Shown here piece by piece: positions 3,604 through 55,394 of a stretch of DNA of 64,000 nucleotides. Both the position numbers and the translations under genes were made by a program. Position 1 is the first letter of the stretch. Every line of letters starts with the position of its first letter. The stretch lies in sequence record MT682709.1; one strand, written 5' to 3'. A model generated the notes under the pieces. That model searched no databases. It was given only the letters and a program-made list of their open reading frames with translations, and was not told the origin of the DNA. The stretch comes from Escherichia phage vB_EcoM_SP1.

Positions 3604-3933
3604 ATGATTTATTGTATGAATATCGGTGATTCCGACATAAAAGAGATTAAACTGCACGGAAATCATCACGCTAATATTGTGTACTGTAATAAATTTGAGT
3701 TTGGTCACGAAAAACTTGGAGTTCTTTATTGCAATGATGTTATAGTCATAGATAAAAAGAAACTCGATGAACTTGACCGTGAGTCTTTAAATGAAAATGA
3801 TCGAATTTATTATGGTACTCTTAAAGTATATAACGCTTATCTTAGTGGTAAAAAGGAAAGTCTAAATGCAGAAAACGAATCCAGGTTTACAGAGACTATT
3901 TCAGATTCCGACATTTACCCTATCGAACAGTGA
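3604..3933 (+). CDS. hypothetical protein, 109 aa
   Basis: ORF with RBS AAGGAAAAAUU; overlaps predicted denB start by 68 nt so one of the two starts is uncertain. Confidence 0.4.
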   Translation: MIYCMNIGDSDIKEIKLHGNHHANIVYCNKFEFGHEKLGVLYCNDVIVIDKKKLDELDRESLNENDRIYYGTLKVYNAYLSGKKESLNAENESRFTETISDSDIYPIEQ

Positions 3934-4423
3934 CTTAACTAGTGAAATGAAGGTCAAAATTGCTGATACAGCAAGATACTCTTTAAAACAAAATCCTAAT
4001 CAGGATAAAGCAGAAGTCATCGAAAGATGCCGTATCGCTGTGTACGCAGAATTTTTTGTAGCAGACTGGCTGAGCGGGTATGTTAACAAAGGCCAAGAGG
4101 ATGTTAATGACCCGTATACATACGCATGGGATGTATTGGCACACCCAAGATACTGCGGGCTTCGTGTAGAAGTTAAGACACATCAAACTGACTCACGTTG
4201 GATTTCGGTAACAACCGGATGCAGCGGAGAGTATCCATACGGTTCTGGAATAAATCTAGGGCCCATTCTGAATCATCAGGTCGCTGACTGTATAATTATA
4301 TTCAACACTAAAGAAATTCATCCAGGTGTCATCCAGTACACTCCGAAGTTCATCGGTGATAGAGAAGACCTTCGTAAGGTTGTAAGAAAAAGCAACTACA
4401 ACGGATGGTATCTTTCCATTTAA
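3866..4423 (+). CDS. denB: endonuclease IV (dC-specific ssDNA endonuclease)
   Basis: 185 aa, matching T4 EndoIV length; synteny between rIIB and ndd. Confidence 0.7.
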   Translation: MQKTNPGLQRLFQIPTFTLSNSDLTSEMKVKIADTARYSLKQNPNQDKAEVIERCRIAVYAEFFVADWLSGYVNKGQEDVNDPYTYAWDVLAHPRYCGLRVEVKTHQTDSRWISVTTGCSGEYPYGSGINLGPILNHQVADCIIIFNTKEIHPGVIQYTPKFIGDREDLRKVVRKSNYNGWYLSI

Positions 4424-4438
4424 AAATTTCACAAGACA

Positions 4439-4470
4439 GTTTACATACCACAAGGACCGTGGTACTATAC
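4439..4470 (+). promoter_or_regulatory. T4-type early promoter (GTTTACA -35, TACTAT -10, 17-bp spacer)
   Basis: GTTTACA at 4439, TACTAT at 4463; conserved leader ACAACTATCAACTGATAC shared with promoters at 8300 and 24968. Confidence 0.5.
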
Positions 4471-4490
4471 AACTATCAACTGATACGGAT

Positions 4491-4709
4491 TTGGAGAATA
4501 AAATGTTTACTACAGCTGAATTAAAACGAGCAAAAGCTAAGAAAGGACAAGGAAAATATAAAGCTGAATTAGTTAAAGAACTTCAGTTTGCTGAGGCTGA
4601 ATTGAATTCAATGATTATTCAAAATGTTCCAGAAACTGAAATTGCTCTTAAGCGTATTGCGAATAAGTGTCTTCGTGATGCAATCGTCGATCTTTTAGCG
4701 GATTATTGA
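4491..4709 (+). CDS. hypothetical protein, 72 aa
   Basis: ORF downstream of early promoter, RBS GGAGAAUAAA. Confidence 0.55.
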   Translation: MENKMFTTAELKRAKAKKGQGKYKAELVKELQFAEAELNSMIIQNVPETEIALKRIANKCLRDAIVDLLADY

Positions 4710-4978
4710 GTAAAATGAAATTTAAATTTTATTACGCTAAACATAAAATAACTGATGAGTTTGTGTCAGTTGAATATTCTAGCGATGATGAAGGTATGAT
4801 TTATACTCGCTTGGGACTATCGCATTGGGAGTCTGATACGCCTTATTTTTCAACTCCCGAAGAAATTACACGCTTAGTTAATGGTCATATGAATGACCAC
4901 TGGGATGTAATTCTTTCAGATAGTCTTAAAGCGGCTATTAATAGTAATGAAATGAAAATCGCTGAGATTGAACTATGA
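4706..4978 (+). CDS. hypothetical protein, 90 aa
   Basis: ATGA start/stop overlap with upstream ORF. Confidence 0.55.
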   Translation: MSKMKFKFYYAKHKITDEFVSVEYSSDDEGMIYTRLGLSHWESDTPYFSTPEEITRLVNGHMNDHWDVILSDSLKAAINSNEMKIAEIEL

Positions 4979-5342: not shown

Positions 5343-5540
5343 ATGAAGCGTAAACGCAGTGCTTTTACATTTATGGAATGGTTTTTCGATAATATTTTTC
5401 CGGCTTTATTCATTTTCATGTTGATTTTCGCCTTGGGTTCAGTTGTGGTTGGAATCTATTTGATGGCAGTTGTCGGAATGGATATTCACCAAAATGGTTT
5501 GAAATCTGTGGTTGAAACAATTTGGAATGGTGTAAAATAA
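5343..5540 (+). CDS. small membrane protein, 65 aa
   Basis: RBS GAGGAAAAU; basic N-terminus followed by long hydrophobic segment. Confidence 0.5.
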   Translation: MKRKRSAFTFMEWFFDNIFPALFIFMLIFALGSVVVGIYLMAVVGMDIHQNGLKSVVETIWNGVK

Positions 5541-5647
5541 TGAATTTACTAAGCATTTGGTTTTATATTCTTGTATTTTACATTGGTGCAAATTTCCCAT
5601 ATTGGATGGGATGGTCAACAACTGCATTTGGATTTTATACTCCCTGA
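5540..5647 (+). CDS. tiny hydrophobic peptide, 35 aa
   Basis: TAATG overlap with upstream ORF; aromatic-rich hydrophobic sequence. Confidence 0.4.
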   Translation: MNLLSIWFYILVFYIGANFPYWMGWSTTAFGFYTP

Positions 5648-5655
5648 GGTGAATT

Positions 5656-5871
5656 ATGAAAATTTTTAAAGATGTAAAGGTCGGTGAAATTTTTTGCTTA
5701 GATAATGGTGATCAGTTAATTCGTATTTCACCTCTTAAGAGCACTAGCGAGAAAATGACAGTTAACGCTACTTTAGCAAATAACAGTAATGAACGTTTCT
5801 GTATTGAAAATGATACTGAAACTTATACTGTAGAAGAATTCTGGGAATTAAGTGTCGACTGCGACGATTAA
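5656..5871 (+). CDS. hypothetical protein, 71 aa
   Basis: RBS GAGGUGAAUU; followed by hairpin GGCCGTATG-AATA-CATACGGCC. Confidence 0.55.
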   Translation: MKIFKDVKVGEIFCLDNGDQLIRISPLKSTSEKMTVNATLANNSNERFCIENDTETYTVEEFWELSVDCDD

Positions 5872-5930
5872 TTTATCGGCCGTATGAATACATACGGCCT
5901 TGGAGTAGAAAATAATTAGAGGAAATTAAC

Positions 5931-6769: not shown

Positions 6770-8098
6770 ATGCAACTGAATAATCGCGATTTAAAAAGTA
6801 TCATTGATAATGAAGCACTGGCTTATGCTATGTACACGGTTGAAAATCGTGCTATTCCAAATATGATTGATGGATTTAAGCCAGTTCAACGATTTGTTAT
6901 TGCTCGAGCTCTTGATTTGGCGCGAGGAAATAAAGATAAGTTTCACAAGCTCGCTTCTATTGCAGGTGGTGTAGCTGACCTTGGATATCATCATGGTGAA
7001 AACTCTGCGCAAGACGCGGGGGCTTTGATGGCTAACACTTGGAATAATAACTTTCCTTTGTTAGATGGTCAAGGAAACTTTGGTTCTCGTACCGTTCAAA
7101 AAGCAGCAGCAAGTCGTTATATTTTTGCTCGTGTAAGTAAAAATTTCTATAACGTATATAAAGATACTGAATATGCTCCGGTACATCAAGATAAAGAACA
7201 CATTCCGCCTGCTTTCTATTTGCCTATTATTCCTACTGTTCTTCTTAATGGTGTTTCCGGTATTGCAACTGGTTATGCAACTTACATTCTTCCTCATAGT
7301 GTTTCTTCTGTCAAGAAAGCTGTACTACAAGCTCTTCAAGGAAAGAAAGTAACTAAACCGAAGGTAGAATTCCCAGAATTTCGCGGTGAAGTCGTTGAAA
7401 TTGACGGTCAATATGAAATTCGTGGAACGTACAAGTTTACTTCACGAACTCAAATGAATATCACTGAGATTCCGTATAAGTATGATCGTGAAACTTATGT
7501 GAGTAAAATCTTAGACCCGCTTGAAGATAAAGGCTTCATTACGTGGGATGATGCTTGTGGTGAGCATGGTTTTGGCTTTAAAATTAAATTCCGCAAAGAA
7601 TACTCTTTGAGTGATAACGAAGAAGAACGCCATGCAAAAATTATGAAAGACTTTGGGTTGATTGAGCGTCGTTCCCAAAATATTACAGTCATCAACGAGA
7701 AAGGAAAGTTACAAGTTTACGATAACGTAGTTGATTTAATTAAAGACTTCGTTGAAGTTCGTAAAACTTATGTCCAAAAGCGAATTGATAACAAAATCAA
7801 AGAAACTGAATCAGCATTTCGTTTAGCCTTTGCCAAGGCACATTTCATTAAGAAAGTAATTTCAGGTGAAATTGTTGTGCAGGGTAAAACTCGCAAAGAA
7901 CTGACCGAAGAACTTTCTAAAATTGAGATGTATTCTTCTTATGTCGATAAACTAGTCGGAATGAATATTTTTCATATGACTTCCGACGAAGCAAAGAAAC
8001 TTGCTGAAGAAGCTAAAGCTAAGAAAGAAGAAAACGAATATTGGAAAACTACTGATGTAGTTACCGAATACACCAAAGATTTAGAGGAAATCAAATGA
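6770..8098 (+). CDS. 52: DNA topoisomerase II medium subunit gp52
   Basis: 442 aa as T4 gp52; GyrA-like N-terminus with PVQRFV motif and TGYAT. Confidence 0.95.
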   Translation: MQLNNRDLKSIIDNEALAYAMYTVENRAIPNMIDGFKPVQRFVIARALDLARGNKDKFHKLASIAGGVADLGYHHGENSAQDAGALMANTWNNNFPLLDGQGNFGSRTVQKAAASRYIFARVSKNFYNVYKDTEYAPVHQDKEHIPPAFYLPIIPTVLLNGVSGIATGYATYILPHSVSSVKKAVLQALQGKKVTKPKVEFPEFRGEVVEIDGQYEIRGTYKFTSRTQMNITEIPYKYDRETYVSKILDPLEDKGFITWDDACGEHGFGFKIKFRKEYSLSDNEEERHAKIMKDFGLIERRSQNITVINEKGKLQVYDNVVDLIKDFVEVRKTYVQKRIDNKIKETESAFRLAFAKAHFIKKVISGEIVVQGKTRKELTEELSKIEMYSSYVDKLVGMNIFHMTSDEAKKLAEEAKAKKEENEYWKTTDVVTEYTKDLEEIK

Positions 8099-8244
8099 GT
8101 CCATTCATTGGTATTACAAGCGCGGCGTTAGTATCTGGTAGCATTTTACTGGCGGGGTTAGGTGTTGTTCCAGCCGTAGCAGGAGGTCTTCTTGCGTTCG
8201 GCATTCAACGTGTTATCATGACAGTTATCACAGTCATGCAGTAA
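8095..8244 (+). CDS. small hydrophobic protein, 49 aa
   Basis: ATGA overlap with gene 52 stop; Gly/Ala-rich hydrophobic sequence. Confidence 0.4.
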   Translation: MSPFIGITSAALVSGSILLAGLGVVPAVAGGLLAFGIQRVIMTVITVMQ

Positions 8245-8249
8245 TTTTA

Positions 8250-8280
8250 GGGAGAGCCTCGGCTCTCCCTTTTTATTTTA
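8250..8280 (+). terminator. rho-independent terminator
   Basis: GGGAGAGCC-TC-GGCTCTCCC hairpin followed by TTTTTATTTT. Confidence 0.65.
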
Positions 8281-8299
8281 AAATTTTTTTCACAAAACG

Positions 8300-8329
8300 G
8301 TTTACAACCAAAGCATACTGTTGTACTAT
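8300..8329 (+). promoter_or_regulatory. T4-type early promoter upstream of motA
   Basis: AT-rich UP region, GTTTACA at 8300, TACTAT at 8324; upstream 35 nt nearly identical to the cassette at 24939. Confidence 0.55.
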
Positions 8330-8370
8330 ACAACTATCAACTACTGATACAGAATTACGGAGATTAGAAA

Positions 8371-9006
8371 ATGTCTAAAGTAACTTACATCATCAAAGCT
8401 TCTAACGATGTTCTGAATGAAAAAACTGCTGCGATTTTAATTACCATTGCTAAGAAAGATTTCATTACAGCTGCAGAAGTTCGTGAGGTGCATCCAGATT
8501 TAGGTAACGCAGTAGTTAATAGTAATATTGGGGTATTGATTAAAAAAGGCCTGGTGGAGAAATCTGGTGATGGATTAATCATTACTGGTGAAGCTCAGGA
8601 TATTATTTCAAATGCAGCAACTTTATACGCACAGGAAAACGCTCCTGAACTGCTGAAAAAACGAGCAACTCGTAAAGCTCGCGAAATTACCTCTGATATG
8701 GAAGAAGATAAAGATTTCATGTTAAAACTTTTAGATGAAAATGGATTTGTTCTTAAAAAGGTTGAAACTTATCGTAGTAACTATCTCGCTATTTTAGAAA
8801 AACGCACTCACGGAATTCGTAATTTTGAAATTAACAACAATGGAAATATGCGAATTTTTGGATACAAAATGATGGAACATCATATTCAGAAATTTACTGA
8901 TATCGGAATGTCATGTAAAATCGCTAAAAACGGTAATGTGTATCTTGACATTAAACGCTCAGCAGAAAACATTGAAGCTGTAATCACCGTAGCATCTGAA
9001 CTGTGA
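8371..9006 (+). CDS. motA: middle-promoter transcription activator MotA
   Basis: 211 aa as T4 MotA; preceded by early promoter. Confidence 0.9.
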   Translation: MSKVTYIIKASNDVLNEKTAAILITIAKKDFITAAEVREVHPDLGNAVVNSNIGVLIKKGLVEKSGDGLIITGEAQDIISNAATLYAQENAPELLKKRATRKAREITSDMEEDKDFMLKLLDENGFVLKKVETYRSNYLAILEKRTHGIRNFEINNNGNMRIFGYKMMEHHIQKFTDIGMSCKIAKNGNVYLDIKRSAENIEAVITVASEL

Positions 9007-23987: not shown

Positions 23988-24896
23988 ATGTTTAAACGTA
24001 AATCTACTGCTGAACTCGCTGCACAAATGGCTAAACTGGCTGGAAATAAAGGTGGTTTTTCTTCTGAAGATAAAGGCGAGTGGAAACTGAAACTCGATAA
24101 TGCGGGTAACGGTCAAGCAGTAATTCGTTTTCTTCCGTCTAAAAATGATGAACAAGCACCATTCGCAATTCTTGTAAATCACGGTTTCAAGAAAAATGGT
24201 AAATGGTATATTGAAAACTGTTCATCTACCCACGGTGATTACGATTCTTGTCCAGTATGTCAGTACATCAGTAAAAATGATTTGTATAACACTGACAATA
24301 AAGAGTACGGTCTTGTTAAACGTAAAACTTCTTACTGGGCTAACATTCTTGTAGTAAAAGACCCAGCTGCTCCAGAAAATGAAGGTAAAGTATTTAAATA
24401 CCGTTTCGGTAAGAAAATCTGGGATAAAATCAATGCAATGATTGCAGTTGATGTTGAAATGGGTGAAACTCCGGTTGATGTAACTTGTCCGTGGGAAGGT
24501 GCTAACTTTGTACTGAAAGTTAAACAAGTTTCTGGTTTTAGTAACTACGACGAATCTAAATTCCTGAATCAATCTGCGATTCCAAACATTGATGATGAAT
24601 CTTTCCAGAAAGAACTGTTCGAACAAATGGTTGACCTTTCTGAAATGACTTCTAAAGATAAATTCAAATCGTTTGAAGAACTGAGCACTAAGTTCAGTCA
24701 AGTTATGGGAACTGCTGCTATGGGCGGTGCCGCAGCAACTGCCGCTAAGAAAGCTGATAAAGTTGCTGATGATTTGGATGCATTCAATGTTGATGACTTC
24801 AAAACAAAAACTGAAGATGATTTTATGAGCTCAAGCTCTGGCAGTTCATCTGGCGCTGATGACACGGACCTGGATGACCTTTTGAATGACCTTTAA
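23988..24896 (+). CDS. 32: ssDNA-binding protein gp32
   Basis: 302 aa; [18 protein letters not shown]-terminus and acidic C-terminus as T4 gp32. Confidence 0.95.
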
Positions 24897-24918: not shown

Positions 24919-24946
24919 GGGGACCCTAGAGGTCCCCTTTTTTATT
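24919..24946 (+). terminator. rho-independent terminator after gene 32
   Basis: GGGGACC-CTAGA-GGTCCCC hairpin plus TTTTTTATTTT. Confidence 0.65.
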
Positions 24947-24967
24947 TTAAAATTTTTTCACAAAACA

Positions 24968-24997
24968 GTTTACATTCTTGTCATTCCATGGTACTAT
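24968..24997 (+). promoter_or_regulatory. T4-type early promoter
   Basis: GTTTACA at 24968, TACTAT at 24992; near-identical upstream AT-rich block to promoter at 8300. Confidence 0.55.
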
Positions 24998-25041
24998 ACA
25001 ACTATCGGCAATACTGCTGATGATTAAAAGAGGAAAATAAT

Positions 25042-25272
25042 ATGGCTAAAGTTGATATTGACATCGTTGATTTTGAATATATTGAAGAAATTATTCGTAA
25101 TCGTTATCCTGAACTTAGTATCACAAGTATTCATGATGATCCCAATTATTGCAATTTTTCTATTGTCATTGAAGGTCCTCTTGAAGACCTCACCCGCTTT
25201 ATGGCTAATGAATATTGTGATGGCATGGATTCTGAAGATGCAGAATTTTATATGGGACTGATTGAACAATAA
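25042..25272 (+). CDS. hypothetical acidic protein, 76 aa
   Basis: ORF with RBS AGAGGAAAAUAAU. Confidence 0.5.
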
Positions 25273-25697: not shown

Positions 25698-25726
25698 TTT
25701 ACAGTAGGGTAGTAGTGTGATACTAT
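25697..25726 (+). promoter_or_regulatory. early promoter with imperfect inverted repeat around -10
   Basis: GTTTACA at 25697, TACTAT at 25721. Confidence 0.45.
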
Positions 25727-25751
25727 TACCCTATCAACTAAGGAGAATAAA

Positions 25752-34460: not shown

Positions 34461-34514
34461 GTTTACAAGTCCCTCGTGTTGTGTTATAGTAGTCTTACTG
34501 ACATAACATGAGGA
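34461..34514 (+). promoter_or_regulatory. early promoter cassette, copy 1 of a perfect 54-bp repeat
   Basis: GTTTACA at 34461, TATAGT at 34485; identical to 48746-48799. Confidence 0.55.
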
Positions 34515-48388: not shown

Positions 48389-48774
48389 ATGGAACTTATT
48401 GCAGAATTATTTGACGGCGCTTCGGCGCCGGTTGTTAACTTAAATCCTAAGCATAAAATACCTCAAATTTTTGCTATTCAAGCCGGTGAAGAAAGCGTAC
48501 TTCCTGGATTTAGATTTTGTACATACACCTCTGACGGTGATACAAATAAAACGTTAAACCAGGCGATAAAATGATGCATATCGTAATGATAGGTGTTAAT
48601 GAGAAACTATCATTAGTTAAGCTTAAAAACTTGAGTGGAAATCAAATTGGTGTCATTAATGCTGTTTTTGATACTGCTCTTCAAACAATGAAACAGTATA
48701 AAATCGACGCATGCCTATTCCGCGTACTAAAAAGTTCAAAATGTAGTTTACAAGTCCCTCGTGTTGTGTTATAG
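48389..48774 (+). pseudogene. frameshifted, truncated paralog of the alt N-terminal region (two ORFs of 61 and 67 aa)
   Basis: MELIAELFD..CTYTSDGDTN and MMHIV..QTMKQYKIDACLFRVLK align with Alt residues ~1-125; a 1-nt indel before AAAATGATGCAT separates the two frames. Confidence 0.55.
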
Positions 48775-48799
48775 TAGTCTTACTGACATAACATGAGGA
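48746..48799 (+). promoter_or_regulatory. early promoter cassette, copy 2 of the perfect 54-bp repeat
   Basis: identical to 34461-34514; GTTTACA -35 and TATAGT -10. Confidence 0.5.
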
Positions 48800-55382: not shown

Positions 55383-55394
55383 TATTTATAAATA
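55383..55394. promoter_or_regulatory. divergent late promoters (TATTTATAAATA) for genes 51 and 26
   Basis: overlapping TATAAATA octamers on both strands in the 50-nt divergent intergenic region. Confidence 0.5.

Follow-up and report, generated by a model that had tools for sequence, protein, structure and literature searches.

Shared sequence blocks in three early-promoter cassettes of a T4-like phage

The intergenic region upstream of motA in Escherichia phage vB_EcoM_SP1 (MT682709.1) raises the question why its promoter is so similar to promoters of other, distant genes. In the first-pass annotation of the 64,000-nt stretch of DNA analysed here (the window), the promoters before motA, after gene 32 and at 4439-4470 were described as members of one family, each following a terminator hairpin, and were interpreted as portable terminator-promoter modules delimiting early gene cassettes.

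The window comes from a T4-like phage of the genus Tequatrovirus: over 7800-9000 it shares 99.2% identity with Escherichia phage BF15, and 95-99% with some 480 further Tequatrovirus records. On the plus strand the genes follow, by the BF15/T4 annotation, in the order 60, rIIA, rIIB, denB.1, denB, the ndd-region ORFs, ndd, ac, 52, motA.1, motA, arn, asiA; tail-fibre genes lie on the opposite strand after asiA, and are followed by rnh, dsbA, 33, 59, 32, and frd.3 onwards. Therefore, the plus strand of the window is the early-transcription strand of T4. The gene names assigned earlier are correct, as ORF 8371-9006 translates as T4 MotA and ORF 23988-24896 is gp32. Coordinates of all features are given in Table 1.

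Table 1. Elements of the three cassettes and early promoters of the window
Feature	Coordinates	Strand	Remarks
Post-denB early promoter, without terminator	4416..4477	+	orthologue T4 167085; annotated early promoter in fPS-90
GTTTACA of the post-denB promoter	4439-4445	+	
Spacer TACCACAAGGACCGTGG of the post-denB promoter	4446-4462	+	17 bp; TGn present (TGG)
TACTAT of the post-denB promoter	4463-4468	+	
ACAACTATC of the post-denB promoter	4469-4477	+	predicted +1, A at 4475
28-nt leader and 68-aa ORF	4475..4709	+	ORF 4503-4709
Intrinsic terminator hairpin AGGGAGAGCC-TCGG-CTCTCCCT	8249..8270	+	ends the gene 52 / motA.1 unit; terminator scan
A/T-rich block TTTTTATTTTAAAATTTTTTTCACAAAACG	8271..8299	+	UP-element position, about -65 to -37; near-identical block 24938-24967
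-35 element GTTTACA of the motA promoter	8300..8306	+	T4 early consensus GTTTAC at -36..-31 (PMC1524935)
Spacer ACCAAAGCATACTGTTG of the motA promoter	8307..8323	+	17 bp; base 8322 is T
-10 hexamer TACTAT of the motA promoter	8324..8329	+	
Start-site block ACAACTATC	8330..8338	+	exact in all three sites; ACAACT/ATC
Predicted motA leader, 35 nt	8336..8370	+	unstructured, fold z -0.39
motA	8371..9006	+	211 aa; served by the cassette; ORF list, BF15/T4 annotation
Gene 32 terminator hairpin GGGGACC-CTAGA-GGTCCCC, then TTTTTT	24919..24937	+	annotated terminator in fPS-90, D5505
Post-gene-32 early promoter	24938..25006	+	orthologue at T4 146874
UP-like block of the post-32 promoter	24938-24967	+	
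GTTTACA of the post-32 promoter	24968-24974	+	
Spacer TTCTTGTCATTCCATGG of the post-32 promoter	24975-24991	+	17 bp; TGn present (TGG)
TACTAT of the post-32 promoter	24992-24997	+	
ACAACTATC of the post-32 promoter	24998-25006	+	predicted +1, A at 25004
Post-32 leader	25004-25041	+	SD GAGG 25030-25033
frd.3 homologue ORF	25042-25272	+	76 aa; PHROG without known function
Window early promoters, -35 hexamers	4440, 5165, 8301, 10766, 21664, 24969, 25698, 34462, 37787, 41479, 41871, 48747	+	

The reported sharing of blocks is fully borne out, with the strings located where they had been placed. The 16-mer GTACTATACAACTATC is common to all three sites, with exact matches at 4462, 8323 and 24991 and no other occurrence in the window even when up to three mismatches are allowed; at this level of mismatch 0.57 occurrences are expected by chance, and three or more copies were seen in none of 100 shuffles. 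The likeness of the upstream blocks of the motA and post-32 copies holds as well: the 25-nt string AAATTTTTTCACAAAACNGTTTACA matches the window only at 8282 (one mismatch) and 24950 (no mismatches), with the chance expectation of 0.00. One correction concerns the wording of the motA copy, where the window reads TTGTACTAT, not TGGTACTAT. GTTTACA by itself is not enriched in the window (13 observed occurrences vs 10.8 expected), so the signal resides in the extended blocks.

The similarity persists upon careful alignment. Over positions -36..+47 (83 nt) pairs within the trio are 69-78% identical, compared to the average of 60% for the 63 other pairs formed by the 12 early promoters of the window, and both the alignment and block-wise identities make the trio the tightest cluster among the twelve. 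The spacers differ among the three copies, and the similarity is concentrated upstream of the -35 element, where the promoters at 8301 and 24969 are 89% identical, and from -10 to +12, with 83% identity in all three pairs. Beyond +3 the sequences differ (AACTACTGATAC, AACTGATAC, GGCAATACTGC), including an ACT repeat of variable length.

The T4 early promoters that precede motA, frd.3 and ndd.6 are the orthologues of the three sites. In T4 the elements are found at the corresponding places, behind motA.1, the gene 32 terminator and denB, and all three are annotated as "predicted early promoter" in the RefSeq phage fPS-90; both observations support the original reading, that these are early promoters of the T4 type. 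No curated promoter features are present in the T4 records NC_000866 and AF158101. We also considered Pe144.6 (PMC6024815) as a possible name of the post-32 promoter in old map units, but the source text does not permit the assignment.

Known T4 early promoters feature GTTTAC at -36..-31, an A-rich segment at -40..-44, a GT-rich stretch before the -10 element, and T-12, A-11, T-7 (PMC1524935); they have also been described as combining UP, -35, TGn and -10 elements with additional conserved regions (PMC2988021). In the window, GTTTAC occupies -36..-31 in the copies starting at 4439, 8300 and 24968, and all three have a 17-bp spacer, within the 16-18 bp of this promoter class, and TACTAT (T-12, A-11, T-7; TAnnnT). 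Extended -10 TGn, which according to the literature is frequent but not obligatory in T4 early promoters, is represented by TGG at 4440 and 24969, while the motA copy of the window has TTG, compared to TGG in every orthologue seen. The A/T-rich UP-like region consists of AAAATTTTTT(T)CACAAAAC at 8280-8298 and 24949-24966, and of AAAAATTTCACAAGAC at 4422-4437; within TTTTTATTTTAAAATTTTTTTCACAAAACG, the distal part is AAAATTTTTTT and the proximal one, CACAAAAC. The block at 8271-8299 presumably matches the UP consensus of Estrem 1998. All three promoters are on the plus (early) strand, their predicted leaders of 28-38 nt precede ATGs at 4503, 8371 and 25042, and the SDs (GGAG, GGAG and GAGG, respectively) are located 6-8 nt before ATG. 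The start of the motA transcript is predicted at A in position 8336, seven nucleotides past the -10 hexamer, by the T4 numbering T-12 A-11 T-7 (PMC1524935).

Compared to their T4 counterparts, which occupy orthologous positions and are near-identical in sequence, the motA copy of the window lacks TGn, the post-32 copy has another spacer, and the post-denB copy drives another first ORF. Among promoters of other origin, rrnB P1, T7 A1 and lambda PL likewise owe a very high polymerase affinity to good -35 and -10 hexamers preceded by A/T-rich sequence at -40 to -60 (PMC2613000, PMC2988021; for the positions of UP subsites, see PMC2613000). The T4 type differs from these in its -35 element, which is GTTTAC instead of TTGACA, in the conservation of a GT-rich stretch ahead of -10 and of the start-site block, and in being present as a family of paralogues in a single genome.

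That each promoter follows a terminator hairpin is true for two copies of the three. The hairpin at 8249-8270 (RNA fold of -19 kcal/mol, z -4.1) is an annotated terminator at the orthologous place in fPS-90 and D5505, and its T-run (8271-8275) merges with the UP-like block; the hairpin at 24919-24937 has the fold of -14.3 kcal/mol, z -2.0. Upstream of 4439 we observe no significant hairpin, the sole fold being -4.2 kcal/mol with z -0.26, and fPS-90 annotates terminators only before the motA and post-32 copies. The A/T block of the post-denB copy (4416-4438) includes the final codons of denB and its stop codon (4421-4423), and the promoter at 4439 begins 16 nt past this stop codon. As it has no terminator, the 4439 copy is a promoter-leader cassette, not a terminator-promoter module. 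The hairpin sequences of the motA and post-32 copies are unrelated, so the repetition begins only at the T-run. The two central bases of the motA.1 hairpin, TC in the window, read GA in T4, so that the centre of the palindrome is flipped to its reverse complement.

The predicted leaders of the trio have no significant structure (folding z -0.3 to -1.45), and therefore an RNA element in the leader was rejected; no Rfam family is found anywhere in the window. A candidate palindromic operator in the leader, TATCA-N-TGATA, was discarded too, as the spacing of its arms varies by 3 nt (ACT vs ACTACT) and it is missing from the third copy. In the post-denB cassette the SD lies within GGAGAATAAAA (4493-4503), an exact match to the consensus of strong RegB sites, GGAGRAYARAA (PMC3014915), and the motA SD, GGAG at 8359-8362, fits a RegB-type site at six of seven flanking positions (consensus from PMC3014915).

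Each site is a composite element of about 90-130 bp. In two cases of three it starts with the terminator of the upstream unit, whose T-run enters the next element, an A/T-rich UP-like block that could be contacted by the C-terminal domains of the RNA polymerase alpha subunits. It continues with the core (GTTTACA at -35, a 17-bp spacer, usually with the TGn extended -10, and TACTAT) and ends with the start-site block ACAACT/ATC, a short unstructured leader, SD and ATG. Such a combination should let the unmodified host polymerase fire at once upon DNA entry, and the leader with its SD would provide for immediate translation and, in the two copies with GGAG, for later inactivation by RegB. Given the matches of the SDs to the RegB consensus, the cassette may thus bundle immediate transcription, efficient translation and, in two copies of three, an early mRNA inactivation site.

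The trio is part of a wider family. When a profile is made from 12 candidate sites, its only matches in the window are these 12, all on the plus strand; in T4 the same profile gives about 33 matches at E<0.005, each of them on the early strand, and 32 were extracted. Hairpin and promoter are combined in only three of the twelve window sites (8301, 24969, 41479). The TACTAT-ACAAC sub-type has eight members in T4, located before imm.1, nrdC.9, nrdC.10, rI.-1 (a variant), e.8, frd.3, motA and ndd.6, and the window holds the three members of its range. In near-complete T4-like IMG/VR contigs the exact 16-mer GTACTATACAACTATC is present in up to eight copies, always on one strand, and the 102-nt motA cassette has matches in 550 phage records at 3390 places, that is, about 6.2 per record and typically seven per genome. 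Tequatrovirus genomes contain about 6-7 close copies of the sub-type each. Only about five close relatives with motA are available in IMG/VR. More distant T4-like phages (MotA 52-70% identical) also have a hairpin, a GTTTACA promoter and an A-rich upstream block before motA, while their -10 and leader blocks differ from those of the window; therefore the arrangement is old, and the particular set of blocks is Tequatrovirus-specific.

Two further features were observed in this family. Segments 34461-34510 and 48746-48795 of the window precede different genes and are identical in promoter core and early leader. In T4, an inverted repeat of at least 6 nt between the spacer and the bases just after -10 is present in 11 of the 32 early promoters, about a third, and in six of these it is 7 to 13 nt long; the null expectations are 7.4% and 1.4%, with the permutation p < 1/2000. 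The stems of this dyad vary in sequence between promoters, with a compensatory difference in one pair of paralogues, and the trio does not have it. We have found no mention of the dyad in the searchable literature, whose coverage does not extend to older T4 papers.

Comparison of genomes reveals a mosaic structure of the cassettes. The 17-nt spacer AGCATAAAGCTTTATGG is identical in the T4 promoters at 55383 (nrdC.10) and 146874 (frd.3), and a 36-nt stretch comprising the leader, SD and ATG is common to T4 55383 and the post-denB cassette of the window (4440). The spacer at the post-32 locus is dimorphic: T4 and BF15 have the nrdC.10 type, and the window, fPS-90, D5505 and IMG/VR contigs, the e.8/imm.1 type, one contig's post-32 spacer being identical to the imm.1 spacer of another contig. 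The post-32 spacer of the window is thus unlike those of T4 and BF15 and resembles spacers of other paralogues, with BF15 being the closest relative of the window at motA. One IMG/VR phage has lost the UP and -35 parts of two of its cassettes by deletion between short microhomologies. The shared and swapped spacers and the shared leader point to exchange among paralogous copies of the Tequatrovirus cassettes, beyond convergence alone. A possible trace of concerted evolution, the T/C variant of the upstream block in the motA and post-32 copies, is concordant in seven of eight genomes, which is not significant (Fisher P ~0.11) and is phylogenetically confounded.

The content of ORFs next to the cassettes differs as well. 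D5505-type phages have an additional ORF of 75 aa inserted between motA and its cassette; a 23-nt direct repeat of leader sequence, CTATCAAATAAATGAACTGAAAC, and a second early promoter flank this ORF. Behind the post-denB cassette we observe two ORFs in the window; in BF15, the first ORF with most of the second missing; one ORF in fPS-90, D5505 and sampled IMG/VR relatives; and an 8-codon remnant in T4. The 68-aa ORF of this cassette is present in the window and BF15, and absent at this place in T4, fPS-90, D5505 and IMG/VR relatives. Cargo ORFs behind the cassettes are assigned to PHROG families without known function. Homology between the window and T4 ends precisely at the ATG of the cassette in two places, 4505 and 37848, and within the cassette at 25747.

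Cassette boundaries coincide with breakpoints in gene content at individual loci (post-denB, motA, and the cassettes at 25698 and 37787); in the comparison of the whole window with T4, only three of about eight ORF-scale indels abut a cassette, which is not significant (P ~0.08, with a rough null of about 12 cassettes per 88 gene starts). The other relatives were sampled around motA, which biases their indel counts, and the comparison with T4 is the only unbiased one. The T4 deletion 4505/4946 is explicable by a 9-nt microhomology (AATAAAATG / AATGAAATG) without a second cassette. On this evidence the association of breakpoints with cassettes may be regarded as suggestive. The 195-nt segment 3657-3851, at first considered private to the window, turned out to be a common presence/absence polymorphism, with at least 80% query coverage in 231 phage records.

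The first-pass annotation had noted that such cassettes are described for T4-type phages, and this agrees well with published data: repeated promoters, with or without a terminator, are located at points of ORF shuffling, including in the T4/PST pair (PMC2839356, PMC4122927). These elements are known as PeSLs, promoter-early stem-loops of T4-type phages (Arbiol et al. 2010, PMC2839356; Comeau et al. 2014, PMC4122927), and in the T4/PST pair have the form TTTACW-N17-TAYWAT with an upstream stem-loop, SD and ATG (PMC4122927). The window copies show the same order of elements, namely a stem-loop (two copies of three), an A/T-rich region, a sigma-70-like promoter, SD and ATG; all three have TTTACA-N17-TACTAT, and, like PeSLs, they form many copies conserved over about 100 bp and adjoin ORF indels and replacements. 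Unlike a full PeSL, the 4439 copy has no stem-loop, so that two members of the trio are full PeSLs, and the third is the promoter-leader half. Overall, the anatomy of the trio does not depart from known T4 early promoters or PeSLs, and the finding is real but ordinary, both being already documented, including exchanges in the ndd region (PMC4122927).

Experiments have demonstrated recombination between PeSLs (PMC2839356; Arbiol et al. 2010), and mini-circles are reported for phages RB49 and phi1. For the copies in the window it may be deduced from its footprints, that is, chimeric combinations of blocks and swapped spacers. Small accessory ORFs that travel with, or land beside, their own expression signals are also characteristic of lambdoid morons and integron gene cassettes, a comparison drawn in the PeSL papers themselves. 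Unlike integron cassettes, exchange in T4-type phages involves neither an integrase nor an attC-like site, and is thought to result from general recombination of the phage acting on the repeated promoter sequence. As for the portable terminator-promoter modules proposed initially, the terminator is not a constant part, as seen from the 4439 copy and the small fraction of hairpin-promoter combinations, while portability of the cassettes would be consistent with the comparative mosaicism.

What, then, keeps the copies alike? Very probably, the three sites are sigma-70-dependent immediate-early promoters whose similarity is maintained by selection and by descent with exchange; their activity, start sites and strength are predicted from sequence. 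Two causes of near-identity would act together here, namely purifying selection on polymerase contacts, and common descent with continuing exchange (gene conversion and unequal recombination) among about 6-8 paralogues per genome. As the copies would provide patches of homology at gene starts, we propose that junctions of ORF insertions, deletions and replacements tend to fall into a cassette or at its end. Selection alone could explain part of the similarity, namely the UP-like block, -35 and TGn/-10. Its extreme form, in which all copies independently converged to the optimum for E. coli RNA polymerase without shared ancestry, exchange or any role in shuffling, finds some support in the coincidence of the conserved blocks with known polymerase contact regions and in the distant T4-like phages (MotA 52-70%), which retain GTTTACA and the A-rich block with other -10 and leader blocks. 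Still, leaders and the 5' halves of spacers are not constrained by any consensus, yet are identical between non-orthologous promoters, as in the 17-nt spacer of T4 55383 and 146874 and the 36-nt segment of window 4440 and T4 55383; orthologous promoters have spacers matching paralogues in other genomes, and direct repeats of the cassette sequence flank the inserted ORF in D5505. Pure convergence is hence quite unlikely. Chance resemblance of A/T-rich intergenic sequences would fit the A/T-richness of the genome and the unremarkable frequency of GTTTACA (13 vs 10.8), but has next to no probability and is already refuted by the three exact 16-mers, compared to 0.57 expected with three mismatches, by the 25-mer with its expectation of 0.00, and by conservation of the sites in T4 and hundreds of relatives.

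Another explanation treats TACTAT-ACAACTATC(AACTAC) as a recognition element for a phage factor or a signal acting at the RNA level, marking a co-regulated subset of immediate-early genes. Indeed, this block is invariant in eight T4 promoters and all sampled relatives, while other early promoters use TACCCTATC, AGACCTATC and similar sequences; what determines Alt stimulation and early shut-off is described as unexplained, and promoters identical in -35/TGn/-10 respond differently (PMC2988021). On the other hand, the block is situated where discriminator and start-site contacts of the polymerase are expected, past +3 the copies diverge, the ACT repeat being variable, which leaves no fixed operator-like dyad, the leaders have neither significant structure nor an Rfam match, and no shared function is apparent among the genes behind the block (motA, frd.3 and small ORFs of unknown function). 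We consider this explanation very unlikely. A related proposal, in which the TACTAT-ACAACTATC promoters form a distinct sub-class homogenised by gene conversion, without the dyad, and with the start-site block serving as a signal for differential control, e.g., in response to Alt ADP-ribosylation or in early shut-off, seems improbable. If the sub-class reading were true, T4 early promoters would comprise mechanistically different classes rather than one optimised sigma-70 type. The trio provides promoters, predicted start sites and two terminators for annotation of three transcription units, and, for comparative purposes, differences in ORF content from relatives that start at the cassette ATG.

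The motA promoter of the window has a peculiarity of its own. Base 8322 is T in the window and G in T4, BF15, phage P8 and every other orthologue seen, and therefore the extended -10 TGn is lost in this promoter. This -14 G>T substitution, changing TGG to TTG, is private to the window: the 102-nt motA cassette has a 100% match in no phage record, and phage P8 is identical to the window over the aligned motA-cassette region apart from this base. As motA is the master activator of middle transcription, the substitution could lower or delay MotA synthesis in this phage. It also perfects a small quasi-palindrome, GTTGTA-CTA-TACAAC.

About one in three T4 early promoters carries a perfect inverted repeat around the –10 hexamer, one arm lying in the spacer and the other in the bases directly after the hexamer, so that TGn and the –10 itself would be placed in the loop. 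Among the 32 early promoters extracted genome-wide in T4 (loci L004, L005, L006, and L002), 11 have a repeat of at least 6 nt, and 6 have one of 7–13 nt, compared to the null expectations of 7.4 and 1.4%, respectively (permutation p < 1/2000). The sequence of the stem varies from promoter to promoter in T4, and the paralogous promoters at T4 57989 and 20611 show a compensatory T:A to C:G difference in it. Three promoters of the window also have such a repeat (see the table below), and it is absent from the ACAACTATC trio, that is, the look-alike promoters following denB, preceding motA and following gene 32. We have found no mention of the –10-flanking repeat of T4 early promoters in the searchable literature.

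The early promoter of motA has a private G>T substitution at –14 (TGG to TTG), by which the extended –10 element TGn is lost; the same substitution makes the quasi-palindrome GTTGTA–CTA–TACAAC perfect. It is the sole difference between the window and phage P8 across the aligned region, and the 102-nt motA cassette has no 100% match in any record of the phage collection. The substitution could be a genuine regulatory variant in the promoter of the master activator of middle genes, or else a sequencing error.

In the middle of the upstream motA.1 terminator hairpin, the window, BF15 and P8 have the two bases TC, and T4, fPS-90 and D5505 have GA. These dinucleotides are reverse complements of each other, the pattern to be expected if the palindrome centre had flipped in a strand-switch event.

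D5505-type phages carry two additional elements between the motA.1 terminator–promoter cassette and motA: an ORF of 75 aa and another early promoter, which reads GTTTACT...TACTAT AGACCTATC. The ORF lies between the two copies of a 23-nt direct repeat consisting of leader sequence, and the motA-proximal promoter of these phages is similar to the one in front of motA in distant T4-like phages (loci L052 and L053).

Coordinates of individual features in the window and in related phages
Feature	Genome	Coordinates	Context
Inverted repeat around –10	window	–35 at 25698, 37787, 41871	
G>T at –14	window	8322 (within 8321–8323)	motA early promoter
Hairpin centre	window	8258–8261	motA.1 terminator
Extra ORF and second promoter region	D5505 (L056)	5425–5905	orthologous to window 8240–8373
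Repeated promoter pair	window	34461–34510, 48746–48795	
Orthologues of the pair	T4	136335, 123092	before alc; alt.-2/alt.-3 region
195-nt segment	window	3657–3851	part of small ORF starting at 3604, between denB.1 terminator and denB
Small ORFs of 68 and 87 aa	window	4503–4978	between post-denB promoter and ndd.6
Corresponding locus	T4	167019–166994	

Two cassettes of the family in the T4-like contig IMGVR_UViG_2974787500_000001 (IMG/VR loci L041 and L023) lack UP, –35 and spacer. In both, the deleted stretch starts at the hairpin's 3′ arm in the terminator and stops immediately ahead of the –10 hexamer, with microhomologies of 2–3 nt at its ends, and the terminator is thus joined directly to TATGGTACTAT or CTGTGGTACTAT.

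One more repeated promoter pair shares an identical GTTTACAAGTCCCTCGTGTTGTGTTATAGTAGTCTTACTGACATAACATGAGGA, with different genes downstream and unrelated sequences upstream.

The 195-nt segment near denB, which does not adjoin any promoter cassette, is missing in T4, BF15, fPS-90, D5505 and the IMG/VR relatives; since 231 phage records cover it in full (at least 80% of the query), it represents an ordinary presence/absence polymorphism. Both small ORFs downstream of the post-denB promoter belong to PHROGs of unknown function, and the second one alone is present in the relatives sampled. Most of it is lost in BF15, and in T4 only its final eight codons (MKIAEIEL) remain, joined to the cassette ATG, with a 9-nt microhomology (AATAAAATG / AATGAAATG) at the deletion junction.
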